DNA of 62,790 bases, counting the filler, from Globobulimina sp. (Eukaryota): the NCBI GenBank assembly GCA_003354225.1. It is 29 parts of 29 records of this genome, joined end to end, with 100 filler letters (N's around TTAATTAATTAA, not from the genome) between each part and the next. Parts side by side here need not be neighbours in the genome. Positions count along the whole stretch, not along the records: positions 47,722 to 49,788 come from PIVH01009272.1; 28 more parts are not named here. One strand, given 5' to 3'. The position numbers and the translations under genes were made by a program. Positions 16-58,748 of this stretch are shown here, in pieces. Every line of letters starts with the position of its first letter. Position 1 is the stretch's first letter. The notes below the pieces were generated by a model. That model had not been told where the DNA came from. It worked only from the letters and a program-made list of their open reading frames with translations, and made no database searches.

Positions 16-2071
16 ATGAAAATGTATCACGAAATGATGTATTTATTAATATTATGCGATGTAGATATTGGCAAGGAATCATTGGTAGAAGCCGAGGAAA
101 ACACAGCTACAAAATCCAGAATCTGTTCCGCCTTGGAATTGGCGTATAAATTATATATCCCTCACATATTTGTTGCGTTGACATTAAATAAACGTGGAAA
201 TGTTTTTGGTCGTGACGATGACTGTAAATTACATGATATATTGACCTCAGCATCGGACCACGAAAAGATCCAACATATTATCAATAAATTATGGCGTGGA
301 TCTATATTGGATGAGATAATCAAATGCGATGATCACACATTAAGTATTTTAAGTGCTGCGTTATATTTTTATCATTTAATACGAGGCAAACAGTCTTTAA
401 AACGCATTGAAAAAACGTCATCGCCAACATCACATATTGGCGCTGGTGATGCAATGGTAACTTATTATAAATTTTTGAATCACACAAAGAGATTTTCAAA
501 GAAATGGAATGAAAAATATTATGCAAATTTATTTTTATTAAATAGATTTTGGTCCAAACCATACATTGCAAAATTAAAATTAATTGAATTACATATTGAA
601 TATAAAACATGCCAGCAAACAAAAGGATTTCTGCAATTTGTATCTTATTTGCCTCAATTTTGCAATCTTTCTTGTTTGGATTTGATATCGCTTTCAAACT
701 CACACAACGTGGATCAGCACCATTGTTGTAAGTTATTTGCGGCATTAAACAAATTTTGCCAAAAGAATTACACGTTAAAACGCATTAAATTCGAAGGGTT
801 TGAAATCAGTAAAAAATCAAGTAAATTATTGGCTGAATGGCTCAAACAATGGAATGATAGCTTTGACGCAGTACACACGATACAGGCATTATCATTGGTA
901 AATGTCAAGTTTAATAACAGGGGCATTCAGTTACTATGTGGCGCAATGGAATACAATCAACAATTAATATTTCAAGATTTAGTATTGGATGGAAACGTAT
1001 TTGATATCCCCGGCGCTCATTTCATATGTTCAATGTTACAAAATAAACGGATATCAACTCATTTACAATTGTTACAGATGAAAAATCTAAAATATTTATT
1101 TTTCGATGACGGTGACTCTTTGTTAAAAGTGTATTTGTTGAGAAGTTGCATGAAACACAATTTTCGAGTTATATTAAGTGACCGTGACAGTGACACTGAG
1201 GATGTTATTCTGGCTGCAAACAATTATATAAATAAAAACACCATCGATTATATTAAATCATGCACAGACAACGAATCGACTGCAGTGGCAATTGCGCATA
1301 AACATGATTATGATTATGATACCAAGGAAGAAGACGAAGTACAAATTGAATCGTGTTTGCGATCATTAGCTCCCAACGAAAAAGTGTGGACATATCAAAT
1401 GGAAAAAATCGAGGATACCTGCAAGGCGACAACATGTGCCACTGAATTGCAATCAAATCCTCATTTTGAAGCCGATAAACATAGTAACACATCAAATTGG
1501 AAAATACCCAAACCCAATTTCTCTAAAAATGCAAAGAAATCCCGCAAGATTTGTTTTTTTAAGCCGCGAGAATCCAATGCTAAAAAATTTAAACACAAAC
1601 GAGAACACAGCCGTAGCCATAGCCATATGCATGAAATCCATTCCTTTGAAGAAACAGACGATTGTATTGTGTACAATTCACAGTATAAATATTTATTTAT
1701 ACAGTTAAAAACAATGAAAGATGTGAATATTGAAATAGATTTAAGTATGTTCGATGCATTAAATGTCAAATTTTGTTACATCAAATTGTATAATAATGAT
1801 TCTAGTTTGACACTGTCAAACTCGTCGCTATCAAAGGAAATTTATTTCAGAAATATGATCTGTATTCAAGGAGCCAAAGAGCTTCGTTTTACCACCCATA
1901 GCCGAACTCACCATCAAAAACGGACTCATGTGAGGTGTCCATACTCCATTCATACTTGCGCCGGATCGAAATCGCCCATGCCCGACGGAAAAAGGATCTA
2001 TTCCTCTATACAAATCGAGATTGGGGAAAAACATCTCCCAGACCTCGAAGTTGCCGATGTCAGGCTCCGGG
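16..2071 (+). CDS. LRR (RNI-like) repeat-containing protein, 3' truncated
   Basis: Long ORF with degenerate LRR units (NLSCLDLISL, TLKRIKFEGFEI, IQALSLVNVKFNNRGIQLLC, FQDLVLDGNVFDIPGAHFIC). It runs into the spacer. Confidence 0.5.
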
Positions 2072-16870: not shown

Positions 16871-17112
16871 CGGTTCAGGTGGGATTTTAACCCACATCCA
16901 TGTGTGTTGCATGACAGAATTAATTAAACAGGATAACACTGATAAATGCTGGATTTTTATTGCTTTTAGCGGTTATTTTTTTTTTATTTTGTTTTTTTTT
17001 GTTTGAAGACGTTGCATATGATCATATATTGCATCATAAGCACATGTTGCAGTTATTCAGGGTGCAGCCAAAGCCACAAGACACACGCTCTAACGAGTTG
17101 AGCTACTGAACC
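16871..17112 (-). ncRNA. tRNA-shaped element with about 170-nt insert in the anticodon loop (copy A)
   Basis: Minus strand reads GGTTCAG-TA-GCTC-AACTCGTTA-GAGC-G-TGTGT-CTTGTGGC..insert..ACACA-TGGAT-GTGGG-TTAAAAT-CCCAC-CTGAACC-G. All four stems pair and the T-loop is degenerate. Confidence 0.8.
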
Positions 17113-19534: not shown

Positions 19535-21410
19535 AATAAACATTGCCCGCATCACCATTGACAGCATCTTCTCTTTTTAAATTTGATATAAATTTCTGCG
19601 TCAATCGCCCCGACAACCGAAATTGCCACCTTTTCACTTGTTTCACGATTTTTTGCTTTGAACGGGCTGCTAGATCTCTCCAAAGGTGCAATTAACTCAT
19701 TATTTAACGCAGCAAAAAACCTACAATCGACAGATTACGTTTTTATGCAAAATATTAATTTCAGTGATATTCCTAAGTTCAATCCATCGTATTTTACACC
19801 ATTGGAGATACCATCCAATTTAATATCGCATCTATTGGACTCAAATAATAAATTGATTGATTTTAATACCAATTGGCTCAAATCACTTTTAGTTGAGCTA
19901 CAAATCCATCCTAAAAGCATACAATTAGGCTTTACCGATGGATCAAATAAAGACCTATATGGCGGATCGGGTCTATTTTCCTGCTCAGCCCATTATTATT
20001 TCTTCGACTTATCTTATGACAGCATTATAGCGAATAAATTTATCGATCCTGATATCGATTCCAACCATAATACCATAAGCAACTATTTTTACCATGCCAG
20101 ATCAGTGGGAATTCGCTCAAGTATCGACCACTGCGAAATCGATGGTGTCGATCTGTTGCTGGATGATTTGGATTATTACATCAAAGAAATTGAGTCAAAC
20201 GACCCATTAAAAATTCCCAGTGATATTATGCTCATTATTGACAATCTGGGTGTCATCAAATGGATACTCGGATTAAATGACATTAAATCAAATCAACAAT
20301 TGTATACAATAAAATCAATCAAATTCATCGTCAAATAAATTACTTAAAGCATTATAACATCAAAGTACACATAGTTTGGAAGAATTCGCATACCGGGGAA
20401 CCTGGCAATGATTTGGCGGACTTACTAGCAAAGTTAGCGATGATAAATCTGTATCAAACCAAGGACTGGACCGAATATAAAATCAACCCATCGATAAATG
20501 AATGGCAGAACTATGACTATCAAGCCATTAAAAAGGAACATAAAAGAAATGCATGGTACAACACGCTGAGCAAATTAAGAAACACATACAAAATCTCAAA
20601 AAAGAACAAATATCGCAAATCGCTCTCTTCTCAATATGCAAAATGGAACATAACATATAACAGAATATTTAAGCAAGAATTAAAACATTTGGAGTTCGCC
20701 AAATGGAAAAATATATCAACTTTGCGCGTTGGCCATGGTATCCTCAACGCACAAACCAAATGGAAGCAAGACACCAAATGCATACATCTGAATTGTGGCG
20801 AATTGGAAACAGTTTCGCATTTTTTGTTACACTGCGAATCTTATCATCATCTAAGAACTGAGTTATTCAGGCATTATGAAGAGATATTGGGCCAATATGA
20901 ATCTGCATTTATTTGGCCTGAAAATGACGAGAAGAAATTAAAAATCCTATTATTTCCACTCCACTCACAAATCACATCTAAAGACATCATGCGAAATCAA
21001 ATAGAATGGGACAAATACTGCGAAGCACGAATTAGTTGTTTGAATATATTGTCGAAGTTTATTGATGACACAAAACGATTCACCAATCAATGGAATTATG
21101 ATTTTCATACTTGGTAAATCTTGAATCATCTGAAATAATCAAACTTTAAATTAACTTTATCTATATATTTGTGGTACACTTTTACTGACTCTGTCGAGTC
21201 TACTTTACTTTTTGTTTGTTGTTAGTAAAAAGATTTTGAAAAAATCTATTTGTGTGTTTTCTTTTTATTCATTGTATGATTATTTTGTCCGGGTTATGTG
21301 TATCTGTACACAAACTTTACCGGTTGGCTACTTATTTATTGTCTTGCCGTTTTCCTCTGGCAAGCGCTTAATTTAAAAACTCCACTTTATTCCCTCCGCT
21401 TTCCAAAAAA
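19535..21410 (+). mobile_element. 3' end of a non-LTR retrotransposon with RNase H and CCHC zinc knuckle, frameshifted
   Basis: RNase H motifs FTDGS, CEIDGV and IIDN, and after a frameshift near 20310 VWKNSHTGEPGNDLADLLAK. Then LRVGHGIL..C..CGELETVSHFLLHC, followed by a 3' UTR ending in an A-run. Confidence 0.85.
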
Positions 21411-40906: not shown

Positions 40907-40960
40907 GACTCAGTAGCTCAATGGATAGAGCGTGTGTCTGCAGCTTCTGCTGTCCCTCCA
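40907..40960 (+). ncRNA. tRNA-shaped element, 5' half only (copy B)
   Basis: GACTCAG-TA-GCTC-AATGGATA-GAGC-G-TGTGT-CT-GCA-GCTTCTGCTGTCCCTCCA. No 3' half appears before the contig ends at 41120. Confidence 0.75.
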
Positions 40961-41220
40961 CAAAACTACTCTAATTTCTATACAGAATAGGTAAAAGAAA
41001 CCTGGCATCAGTCAGTCACTTTGCTGGCTAGTGTATGGGTGCTCTTTGTATCTGCTCGGTAACATCTAAGATTTCATTGATTTAACAACCCAACCAATCT
41101 TAAAAAAAATCGTAATATTGNNNNNNNNNNNNNNNNNNNNNNNNNNNNNNNNNNNNNNNNNNNNTTAATTAATTAANNNNNNNNNNNNNNNNNNNNNNNN
41201 NNNNNNNNNNNNNNNNNNNN

Positions 41221-48642: not shown

Positions 48643-49258
48643 ATGGCAGAAACAATAGAAACCCCTTTGACAAAGCTATTTGGTATAAAATATCCAATCA
48701 TGTTAGCTGGGATGAATAAAGCATGTTAAGTTGCTGTATAAACGCACTGTTGTGACAAATGAAAAACCAAATATTCTAATCATTATAGCAGGACCAAAAT
48801 TAGCTGCAGCAGTCTGTAATGCAGGTGGTCTGGGCGTAATTGGTGGATACAATATGACCCCAAGAATATTAAAATTAACCATAAATATTTTAAAACAAAA
48901 TCTGACTCACAAAAACTCTTCATTCGGAGTAGATTTATTAATCCCAAAAGTGGGCGGTGGCGCCAGAGCAACCAACACAGATTATACAAAAGGAAAATTG
49001 CATGAATTGATTGATATCATTATCGAGTCCGGTGCCAAATTATTTGTATGCGCAGTAGGTGTGGCACCGAAAAATATCGTGAAAAAGTTACATGACAACA
49101 ACGTATTATATATGAATATGATCGGATCTCCGAAACATGTCAAATACGCATTAGGTGCAGGTGCGGATATTTTATGTTGCCAAGGTGGCGAAGGTGGTGG
49201 CCATACTGGCGAGGTGGCAACGACTTGTTTGTTACCAAAAGTAGTGGATATGATTAAA
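48643..49258 (+). CDS. Nitronate monooxygenase / 2-nitropropane dioxygenase family, 5' exons
   Basis: TPLTKLFGIKYPIMLAGM, intron 48725-48788, then GPKLAAAVCNAGGLGVIGG and QGGEGGGHTG. Confidence 0.88.
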
Positions 49259-49428
49259 GTTAGGTTCATCGATTAATTAAAAAGAAAAATGGGATGATTT
49301 ATTATTAAAAGATCAATTATTATTAAAATACAATGGAAAATAAGGATGCTTTTGGTGGATTTGAGGAATCGGTCTTTACGAAAATATGTCTGATCATAAA
49401 TATGTGTTTATGTACAAAAAATATATAC

Positions 49429-49631
49429 TGACTCAGGTAGGATTCAAACCTACATCCATGTGCATTGTAATCACAACATTTCATATGACGATTTTTATGT
49501 TGATAAAGTATCGTTTACGGAACACCATAAAAACAAACTGTTTTAAAAAAAAGCAAATGAAGTTAATTGTTGGTGGAACAGCATAAGCTGCAGACACATG
49601 CTCTATCATAAACTAGTTGAGCTACTGAGTC
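49429..49631 (-). ncRNA. tRNA-shaped element with about 120-nt insert in the anticodon loop (copy C)
   Basis: Minus strand reads GACTCAG-TA-GCTC-AACTAGTTTATGATA-GAGC-A-TGTGT-CT-GCA-GC..insert..GCACA-TGGAT-GTAGG-TTTGAAT-CCTAC-CTGAGTC-A. Confidence 0.82.
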
Positions 49632-51852: not shown

Positions 51853-53031
51853 TGCATTAAATTGTTTTAATTCTTTCCAATAAACAGCAAACCATCCGAT
51901 TGGAAATAGAAAAGTAGTTAGAAACTTTAAAAAAATACAGATTGCAAATAATTTCNNNNNNNNNNNNNNNNNNNNNNNNNNNNNNNNNNNNNNNNNNNNT
52001 TAATTAATTAANNNNNNNNNNNNNNNNNNNNNNNNNNNNNNNNNNNNNNNNNNNNTAGAATGTTATCAAAAAAATGCACAGAAACATTGCGTAGAGTTGT
52101 AACAGACTTTAATTTGTCAATCGATTTACCAAAAAAATAGATCGACAATTCATTAATTAGTGATATTATTCGCAAAACATCTGATTCCAAAAAAATAGAA
52201 ACCAAAAATGAACATTGATCTCAATTCGCGTACTTATATGAACCAGATTGATTATTTTTGTTTTGTTTTGTTTCTTGTCAGATTGCATGCGCTAAATTAA
52301 TAATTAAATATCGGCTATAACTGAGTCTGAGTCATCTGACTTTTTATAAGCAAAAAAACTAATTTTAAGCAACTAACAGCAACTAAGATGGGTCTCTGTA
52401 GTTCAACAGAAAATGTGTCAAAAGTCGACGTAAATATTGATGAAGAAGATAAGAAAGATACTGTACATTCCATGACCAGGCCACAAAATAAATCAATTCC
52501 TCCCACACCAGAAGCATCTGAAAACAGTTCCGTATGATGTACTTGTTTGAGCACGCGACATTTTACAAATTAAACCCAAACAAAAAAAGGAGGCATTGGT
52601 GATATTGGTCAAATAGTATCATTTTCCAACAAAGTTTAGATCGTAAGATTACTGAAAAAAAGACATTAATGTAAATTAAATTAAATTAAATTTTTAATTA
52701 AACGTTTTATTCTTTTTATAATAGTGGATTTATATAATCAAACCGTTGACGGTTTTAAACAGCCCGAACTATGAATGATCGAAACATACAGAGATCAATT
52801 CATACATTCTATATTCTTTTACAATATTTGTGATCAATCTTGCTTGATGTTATATCTTTATTTTATAATAATAAAAGTCAGGATAAAAGTGTTTCTATTT
52901 TGTTCCAATTCGATATTTCTTTTTCTGTAATATACATAAACGACAATGGATCATAAAACAGGAACGACAATGATTGTGAAAATTAGTATAAATGAAAGAA
53001 ATCCTTGCACTCAGAAACGAAAAGAAAAAGC

Positions 53032-58287: not shown

Positions 58288-58350
58288 ATACCTTCTCGGC
58301 CTTTTGGCTAAGATCAAGTGTAGTATCAGTTCTTCTCAATAACTGACATA
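58288..58350 (+). ncRNA. U2: U2 spliceosomal snRNA 5' domain (variant or pseudogene)
   Basis: ATACCTTCTCGGCCTTTTGGCTAAGATCAAGTGTAGTATCAGTTCTT matches the conserved U2 5' end, including the branch-recognition sequence GTAGTA. Similarity fades after about 50 nt. Confidence 0.85.
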
Positions 58351-58748
58351 TTTGCATCTGTAAAACAAACAATCAAATCGAATAAACTCGTACAATCATT
58401 CGCAATTTTAACATCAATATATGCTGCTCGTAATTTGTATTTATTCGCTTACCGAANNNNNNNNNNNNNNNNNNNNNNNNNNNNNNNNNNNNNNNNNNNN
58501 TTAATTAATTAANNNNNNNNNNNNNNNNNNNNNNNNNNNNNNNNNNNNNNNNNNNNTTCTTGAGCCAATTTGGCACCCTAAATAAAGAACTACTTTCTTT
58601 TTGCGAGGAAGAACTACGTTTCAAATTTTGCATCAGACTTACGTTTTAAATACACATTTAAAATTCCATACTTTTTTAATCAAGCAATAACAACAAATAT
58701 TCAGATGTCTGCACAGACACACACCAGCCACTCCTTTCCAATAACATC

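Follow-up and report, generated by a model that had tools for sequence, protein, structure and literature searches.

Among the features carried by a 62,790-nucleotide (nt) stretch of Globobulimina sp. DNA (assembly GCA_003354225.1; the whole stretch is called the window below) are three copies, A, B and C, of a tRNA-shaped gene in which the three bases at the anticodon position form one strand of a hairpin with the start of a long insert. An earlier note on this DNA had described a hairpin of 5 base pairs (bp) with a 4-nt loop at that position in all three copies, GCAGC-TTAT-GCTGT in copy C, GCAGC-TTCT-GCTGT at 40940 in copy B and GTGGC-TTTG-GCTGC in copy A; these strings are all correct, and the same plan is confirmed in A, B and C. 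By extending the comparison to 16 members of the family, we find that the hairpin is more than a chance feature, and we propose, with a probability of about one half, that the family consists of structure-selected, probably non-decoding tRNA-like RNAs whose insert lies outside the ordinary rules of splicing. The window is made of 29 pieces of 2067-2071 nt each (about 2070 nt), linked by N44-TTAATTAATTAA-N44 and thus broken by 56 N runs; because of these joins, the three copies may lie apart from one another in the genome. Coordinates are collected in Table 1.

The three copies in the window

All paired parts of copy C are intact: the acceptor GACTCAG/CTGAGTC (7/7), the anticodon stem TGTGT/GCACA (5/5) and the T stem (5/5) are fully paired, the D stem is GCTC/GAGC, and U8, A9 and A26 are in place. 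The loop of the anticodon arm runs C-T-GCA-G and is followed by a 123-nt insert; nt 34-37 together with insert base 1 (GCAGC) are paired with insert bases 6-10 (GCTGT) across the loop TTAT. The C-rich tract behind the hairpin, the T-loop TTTGAAT and the enlarged D-loop that had been reported for this copy are all present, the D-loop (AACTAGTTTATGATA) having 15 nt and no GG. The duplex of the C-rich tract with its partner near the insert's 3' end has a predicted energy of -5.5 kcal/mol versus -3.6 +/- 1.7 in shuffles, which is not significant (fraction 0.14). Both ends of the insert align with those of four relatives, L009-L012, with AAATGTTG near the 3' end in common. The 5' part scores 72.3 bits with the family model R1 and falls below the threshold of the Rfam tRNA model.

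Copy A has its hairpin at 17077..17064, preceded by one extra T; the stem contains two G-U pairs and has a predicted probability of 0.38. Its T-loop is TTAAAAT, as the earlier note had it, and its discriminator is G. Between copies A and C, two acceptor pairs and one T-stem pair differ in a compensated manner. Copy B has a normal D-loop (AATGGATA) and a hairpin at 40940-40953; a linker beginning at 41121, 168 nt after the hairpin, hides its 3' half.

Default ARAGORN reported no tRNA in the window, missing all three copies, and an Rfam scan of the window at gathering thresholds found only a U2 RNA and likewise missed copies A-C. With introns allowed, ARAGORN detected copy A alone in the window and gave it an arbitrary anticodon. 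Default tRNA finders overlook such genes altogether or assign them arbitrary anticodons (SeC, Thr, Tyr, Cys), so that annotations of these genomes can be expected to be wrong. Scanning the window with R1 gave no copy beyond A, B and C; weak R1 matches at window 52294-52366 (15.7 bits; not tRNA-like on reading), window 19849-19907, L013 1371-1455 and L002 2129-2213 were excluded.

Table 1. Coordinates of the tRNA-shaped genes, their parts and associated features (window positions, except where a contig is named)
Feature	Coordinates	Strand	Remarks
Copy A, full-length member, 167-nt insert	16871..17112	(-)	found by ARAGORN with introns allowed; R1 57 bits
Copy B, 5' body, hairpin, C-rich tract	40907..40975	(+)	R1 76.4 bits
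Copy C, whole tRNA-shaped gene	49429..49631	(-)	203 nt including 123-nt insert
Copy C 5' body, nt 1-37	49588..49631	(-)	acceptor strand, D arm, anticodon-stem 5' strand, C32 U33 G34 C35 A36 G37
Copy C hairpin GCAGC-TTAT-GCTGT	49578..49591	(-)	5 bp; base-pair probability 0.99 in full-length fold
Copy C insert	49465..49587	(-)	123 nt; canonical 37/38 intron position
C-rich tract TCCACCAACA after hairpin	49568..49577	(-)	can pair with TGTTGTG (about 49477..49471) near insert 3' end
T8 run in copy C insert	49545..49552	(-)	likely RNA polymerase III (Pol III) stop; then T5 run 49533..49529
Copy C 3' body, nt 38-73	49429..49464	(-)	T38, GCACA, variable region TGGAT, T arm GTAGG-TTTGAAT-CCTAC, CTGAGTC, discriminator A
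T6 run	49416..49421	(-)	terminator-like; 8 nt past copy C discriminator
L005 half copy	L005 673-750	(+)	5' body and perfect UUCG hairpin; 125 nt upstream of same-strand open reading frame (ORF); T4 and T5 runs right after
L006 half copy	L006 5403-5473	(-)	5' body and perfect UUCG hairpin; runs into 3' end of convergent ORF
N44-TTAATTAATTAA-N44 linkers	2072-60723		one per about 2170 nt; ORFs end at each linker

Conservation and covariation of the hairpin

Relatives were found with a pattern built from the 5' halves, in six metagenome contigs and in five short contigs, AT-rich or rich in tRNA genes, of a prokaryote genome collection; the same pattern had no match in viral contigs. Sixteen members of the family were identified, three of them within the window and the other 13 elsewhere in the contigs; R1 confirms them at 51-84 bits. 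Thirteen are full-length (copies A and C, labelled winA and winC, with L001, L002, L003a, L003b, L004a, L004b, L009-L012 and L013), and three are represented by the 5' part only (L005, L006 and the linker-cut copy B, winB). Two further pattern matches, L007 (a bacterial tRNA-Asn) and L008, are unrelated and were left out of all counts. Every full-length member carries an insert of 117-167 nt starting after nt 37, no insert-free member exists among the 16, and all 13 have a complete set of stems (acceptor 7/7, D 4/4, T 5/5, anticodon 4-5/5). The D stem is invariant in 16/16, and the 5' body, nt 1-37, is the family's most conserved block as judged by invariant alignment columns; the D-loops of winC, L005, L009 and L012, as a trait of the AT-rich subgroup, reach 12-17 nt through A/T-rich insertions of differing length.

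Each of the 16 members has a hairpin with 5 or more bp anchored at nt 34, as against about 5% per member when the partner region is shuffled; together with the covariation described below, this rejects a chance origin. Six stems occur, GCAGC/GCTGT, GCGGT/ACCGT, GCGGC/GCCGT, GTGTCC/GGACAT, GCACTC/GAGTGT and GTGGC/GCTGC, and in 9 of the 16 members the hairpin is closed by a C(UUCG)G tetraloop. When all 16 members are aligned by fitting to the model, 96.3% of hairpin cells are paired, three of the five pairs show double-sided changes, and none of 500 shuffles reaches the covariation score. A MAFFT alignment of the 13 full-length members gives 97.0% of 338 cells paired, versus 25-55% in slid controls, with all 65 hairpin cells paired and four of the five hairpin pairs compensated, and with covariation at 7/7 acceptor pairs and 4/5 T-stem pairs. 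The earlier note had claimed, from three copies, that the stems are kept while the triplet drifts; the larger sample bears this out, double-sided changes affecting 17 of the 26 cloverleaf and hairpin pairs, a score that 0/500 shuffles reach. L003b and L013, whose acceptor, D arm and anticodon stem are alike, differ at four of six hairpin pairs, all compensated, with nt 35 and 36 among the changed positions. What makes the evidence unusually direct is that bases of the anticodon itself covary with bases of the insert.

The loops behave differently from the stems. A GG in the D-loop is found in 4/16 members and a canonical TTCRANT T-loop in 5/13, so that the larger set, with GCA at the anticodon position in 12/16 and the hairpin in every member, has neither an invariant anticodon with an intact B-box nor a loss of the hairpin, the observations that the earlier note had named as speaking against it. 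The AT-rich subgroup (winA, winC, L009-L012) lacks C56 and has the D-loop GG in none of its six members, while its stems are perfect. The odd T- and D-loops that had been noticed in the window copies are thus real, and they are not a private decay of those copies: the same T-loop without C56 and the same GG-less D-loop occur in L009-L012, which have perfect stems, UUCG loops and inserts free of T runs, and they are therefore features of the lineage.

This bears on the proposal that the family is functional elsewhere and the three window copies are dead relics, their odd T-loops, D-loop and loop letters being plain decay, a possibility to be taken seriously though we consider it less probable than its opposite. 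It would account for the T8 and T5 runs within the insert of copy C and its TTAT loop in place of the relatives' TTCG, for the extra T, the two G-U pairs and the low hairpin probability of copy A, for the failure of both full-length window copies (0/2) to pass the Rfam tRNA model, and for the existence of the half copies L005 and L006. Against it stand the fully paired stems of copies A and C, the compensated nature of the differences between them, and the recurrence of the loop features in the well-kept L009-L012. For copy C singly the case is stronger. T runs stop Pol III; the T8 of copy C is the longest in its insert, the inserts of 9/13 members having no run longer than T3. Taken member by member, the inserts show no significant avoidance of T runs. 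Copy C is probably a crippled member of the family, with its T8 and T5 runs, lost UUCG loop and 15-nt D-loop beside intact stems; alternatively, it may be the source of a short RNA made of the 5' body plus the hairpin.

Decoding, splicing and transcripts

A decoding role for these RNAs is unlikely, cysteine identity especially. The triplet, GCA in 12, GCG in 2 and GTG in 2 of the 16 members (GCA in copies B and C, GTG in copy A), changes only together with its insert partner. U73 is the Cys discriminator and a major identity element for cysteinyl-tRNA synthetase; nine of the 13 full-length members here have A as discriminator, two have G and two T, and the base differs even between the near-identical L010 (A) and L011 (G) and between L012 (T) and its near-twin L009 (A). 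The pair 31-39 is unpaired in 10/13. The frequent lack of elbow bases (G18 G19; T54 Psi55 C56), as in the D-loop and T-loop of copy C, points in the same direction. Contig L002 contains, near its family member, an intronless tRNA-Cys(GCA) with T73 (U73), and this gene is not among the five best matches of any family body tested; the best canonical matches of the bodies are other isoacceptors, agreeing at 45-54 of 68-76 positions, none of them close.

The insert itself departs from an ordinary intron in how it meets the anticodon arm. Nucleotide 32 is a C that faces insert position -3, which is C in eight and T in five members, so that the C32-G proximal pair occurs in 0/13; in fly intron-containing tRNAs that pair stands beside a 3-nt bulge in 16/16, and breaking it, or making the anticodon-intron helix over-strong, impairs splicing (PMC6614914). 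Splice sites normally lie in single-stranded stretches (PMC4090602); in the family the 3' site does lie in a single-stranded A/T-rich linker, and the 5' site, G37/C, is enclosed in the hairpin stem of 16/16 members, with a predicted pairing probability of 0.77-0.99 in 11/13. Within the insert, it is the 5' start, rather than the 3' part, that pairs with the anticodon.

Beyond the hairpin, a three-way junction can arise through pairing of the C-rich tract with a G/T-rich tract that immediately precedes the end of the insert. L001, L003a and L004a have a 3' insert hairpin in common, with one compensated pair, though their flanks are unalignable. By eye, a local pairing between nt 28-30 (GUG) and a CAC that follows the hairpin, present in minimum-free-energy folds, proved not to be conserved in L004b, L009 and L003b, and box C/D and H/ACA motifs were not found consistently across members' inserts. 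A bulge-helix-bulge-like alternative, in which a palindromic UGCA at the insert's 3' end pairs with nt 33-36, was also rejected by eye, as it reaches 4 bp only in L010 and L011 and 3/4 in the L001 type; this pairing may be the relic of an older helix.

Transcript evidence comes from contigs of a related organism. Those of runs X6 and X8 contain RNA, since the intron of the nitronate monooxygenase (NMO) gene beside copy C (GT..AG, 64 nt, 48725-48788) is spliced out in them. Contigs of X6 and X7 stop exactly at the discriminator (49429) and continue with C-C and then adaptor, an X6 contig having a depth of 219; no CC follows the discriminator in the DNA of the family loci examined, and the C-C end fits tRNA-type 3' trimming and CCA addition. 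Further X6 and X7 contigs, with depths of 710, 174 and 76, span 49572-49609 unbroken, from the D arm through the hairpin into the C tract, and one such contig extends 35 nt into a different insert. Contigs that run through the junction of body and insert mean that insert-containing RNA exists in the related organism and is not rare. Contigs joining 49588 to 49464 are absent, as are RNA-run contigs over the interior of the copy C insert; we give these absences no weight, the contigs being those of a related organism. In the DNA run X1 the NMO exon has a depth of 10.7 and the 5' body one of 285-578, which indicates that the family is multi-copy and that the 5' body with its hairpin is its most conserved block. 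At 49574/49575, contigs of X1 (DNA) and X7 (RNA) leave the common 5' body and hairpin for another, mutually similar insert, so a second type of insert is conserved between the two organisms.

Under the reading we prefer, the genes would be transcribed by Pol III from internal promoters of the A/B-box type, and RNase P, RNase Z and the CCA-adding enzyme would process the ends of the RNA as they do those of a tRNA. The product would be a non-decoding tRNA-like RNA in whose middle arm the anticodon stem, the hairpin and the insert stem meet at a three-way junction. The alignments show that compensatory substitutions keep the hairpin and the acceptor, anticodon and T stems while the triplet changes; the triplet would be selected as the strand of a helix rather than as a decoder. 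The insert would not be removed by the ordinary route of body measurement plus proximal pair, and if it is removed, its recognition would be non-canonical. The suggestion in the earlier note that the shape is read by RNase P, RNase Z or the splicing endonuclease can be kept in part: the C-C tail fits RNase Z and the CCA-adding enzyme, whereas the features expected for the splicing endonuclease are absent, with no proximal pair and a 5' site buried in a stem.

Several observations weigh against this reading. The insert stands between nt 37 and 38 in 13/13 members, the canonical intron position; the eukaryotic endonuclease measures from the tRNA body and tolerates varied sequence around its sites (PMC4090602), and together these leave room for excision. 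Counts alone, with GCA in 12/16, are compatible with Cys-type decoding by the main subfamily. Six of the ten relatives scanned pass the Rfam tRNA model (RF00005; 35.6-45.8 bits against a gathering threshold of 29 bits) and are by that measure tRNA genes with introns. Between paralogs the interiors of the inserts change quickly, in the manner of introns, and conservation is limited to the ends and, within subfamilies, a 3' hairpin. The helix closing the insert beats 96% of shuffles in only 6/13 members, for which reason we reject it as a universal feature, and the thermodynamic model gives the anticodon stem a low probability, 0.00-0.42. The expression data consist of assembled contigs, with 90-95% identity, rather than reads, and contigs containing the junction could represent precursors; in yeast, end-matured, CCA-tailed but unspliced pre-tRNAs are normal intermediates.

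Much of this is what would be expected if the members were tRNA genes of the ordinary kind with introns, those of the main subfamily coding for tRNA-Cys(GCA), together with pseudogenes, and with the hairpin as the lineage's version of the anticodon-intron helix; the RNA would be cut at 37/38 by body measurement, the exons would be ligated, the product would decode, and the long intron might persist as linear or circular RNA. This explanation, the chief competitor of ours and one that we regard as doubtful, draws on the canonical position, the prevalence of GCA, the location of members in tRNA clusters, the Rfam result, the calls made by ARAGORN for 8/13 members when introns are allowed, the C-C end, the variable interiors and the insert ends that pair in six members. 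A precedent can be seen in the 113-nt structured intron of the fly gene CR31905, which yields a circular RNA (PMC4536317). It is at odds with the mismatch at the Cys discriminator, which changes even between near-twins, with the canonical U73 tRNA-Cys that coexists in L002, and with the covariation of nt 35 and 36 with the insert. It also fits poorly with the missing proximal pair, the 5' site in a stable stem, the broken 31-39 pair, the missing elbow bases of the AT-rich subgroup and the lack of any intronless paralog among the 16 members.

A bolder form of the structural reading, which we put forward tentatively and think rather improbable as a whole, would make the family a new class of RNAs of about 200 nt, made by Pol III, CCA-tailed and tRNA-shaped, from a eukaryotic lineage that has been little sampled, in which a three-way junction of a UUCG hairpin and a long insert arm has permanently taken the place of the anticodon loop. 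Such RNAs would never decode and never lose the insert, and they might serve as a scaffold or partner RNA, for example in a ribonucleoprotein encoded in the same small-RNA clusters, while loci with early T runs (copy C, L005) would give a short RNA of the 5' half plus hairpin.

Related systems and genomic surroundings

The closest precedents are the anticodon-intron helices of eukaryotic nuclear pre-tRNAs and the long structured intron of fly CR31905. The family resembles the canonical 37/38 introns of such pre-tRNAs (yeast, fly and human tRNA-Tyr, Ile-UAU, Leu-CAA, Arg-UCU) in its insert after nt 37, intact cloverleaf, pairing of the anticodon to the insert, presence in tRNA clusters and C-C(A) 3' end. 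In those introns, the anticodon's partner is the 3' part of the intron, in an arrangement resembling a bulge-helix-bulge, whereas here it is the insert's 5' start, in a local hairpin. The family further differs in lacking the C32-G pair that is general in the fly set (PMC6614914), in its buried 5' site, in having inserts of 117-167 nt throughout, and in the covariation of triplet and insert. With Drosophila tRNA:Tyr CR31905, whose intron gives the circular tric31905, it has in common a long insert with conserved, covarying structure across related species; CR31905 itself decodes as an ordinary tRNA-Tyr and has the usual helix and bulges (PMC4536317), whereas in the present case the insert is found throughout a family whose triplets vary.

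Two non-decoding RNAs, mascRNA (cut from MALAT1) and the tRNA-like small RNA of the trypanosomatid signal recognition particle (SRP), are matured by tRNA end-processing enzymes, are about 60-85 nt long and have no insert. They are like the family in having a tRNA-shaped body, and some family members (L001, L003) adjoin an SRP RNA gene. A search of the literature, at the level of listings and abstracts, found no published description of the family. If our reading is true, a whole gene family has kept the tRNA shape and end-processing and given up the anticodon, and the few known non-decoding tRNA-like RNAs would gain a eukaryotic nuclear example. The family, which has long inserts and a buried 5' site and lacks both the proximal pair and the elbow bases, would then also serve as a natural experiment on the requirements of the splicing endonuclease, RNase P, RNase Z and the CCA-adding enzyme.

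A further alternative is that these are tRNA-derived short interspersed elements (SINEs) or other retroposed repeats with a tRNA-resembling head. Such elements are likewise multi-copy with a tRNA-like 5' head containing an A box, and the X1 depths and the half copies beside protein genes would suit them. We consider this very improbable: the 3' end of the family closes the cloverleaf, its T arm and acceptor strand covarying with the 5' end, whereas tRNA-derived SINEs have no such closing T arm and acceptor and no covariation over the whole element; flanks differ between loci or belong to small-RNA gene clusters; and neither tail nor target duplication was seen at copies A and C. The idea of a retro-element primer was dropped, because the complement of the 3' end plus CCA matches only the gene itself in the window.

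Neighbours of family members include tRNA-Arg(CCG), tRNA-Sec, tRNA-Gly(CCC), U2, a partial SRP RNA and a weak U3-like match. A tRNA-Arg(CCG) and tRNA-Sec pair stands beside members at L001 521-693, L003 5-177, L004 687-857 and L013 429-659; in L001, L003 and L004 no T run separates the family gene from tRNA-Arg, and the two may therefore be co-transcribed. In L001 a 168-nt U2 (822-989) adjoins the family member, tRNA-Arg and tRNA-Sec. Contig L002 (1-3869) holds 30 tRNA genes within 3.9 kb, among them the family member (403-601, minus strand) and the normal tRNA-Cys(GCA); the array has no Tyr or Asn gene. For the half copies L005 and L006, no 3' half was found within about 5 kb. L009-L012 are four short AT-rich contigs (30-32% GC) under one bacterial metagenome-assembled genome title, and look like eukaryotic DNA binned with a bacterium; in them the family gene lies inside a common repeat unit with conserved upstream and downstream blocks, and L010 and L011 have a weak, sub-threshold match (28-30 bits) to U3 small nucleolar RNA about 435 nt downstream of it.

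As the earlier note had observed, copy C adjoins an NMO exon on the opposite strand. The exon (ORF 48716-49276, plus strand; Pfam NMO, E 1.7e-21) is convergent with copy C at a distance of 152 nt, and overlapping DNA-run contigs bridge the two within one piece of the window. Other protein genes of the window have no close named relatives, a PIP5K-like ORF being at best about 43% identical to proteins of assorted protists and fungi, and the idea of a bdelloid rotifer source was dropped on that ground. C-type lectin, DOMON and PH domains are also encoded; with the 64-nt NMO intron they indicate a eukaryote and nothing narrower. The U2 small nuclear RNA match of the window (58288-58400, plus strand) scores 69.2 bits against a gathering threshold of 46 and is only 113 nt long.

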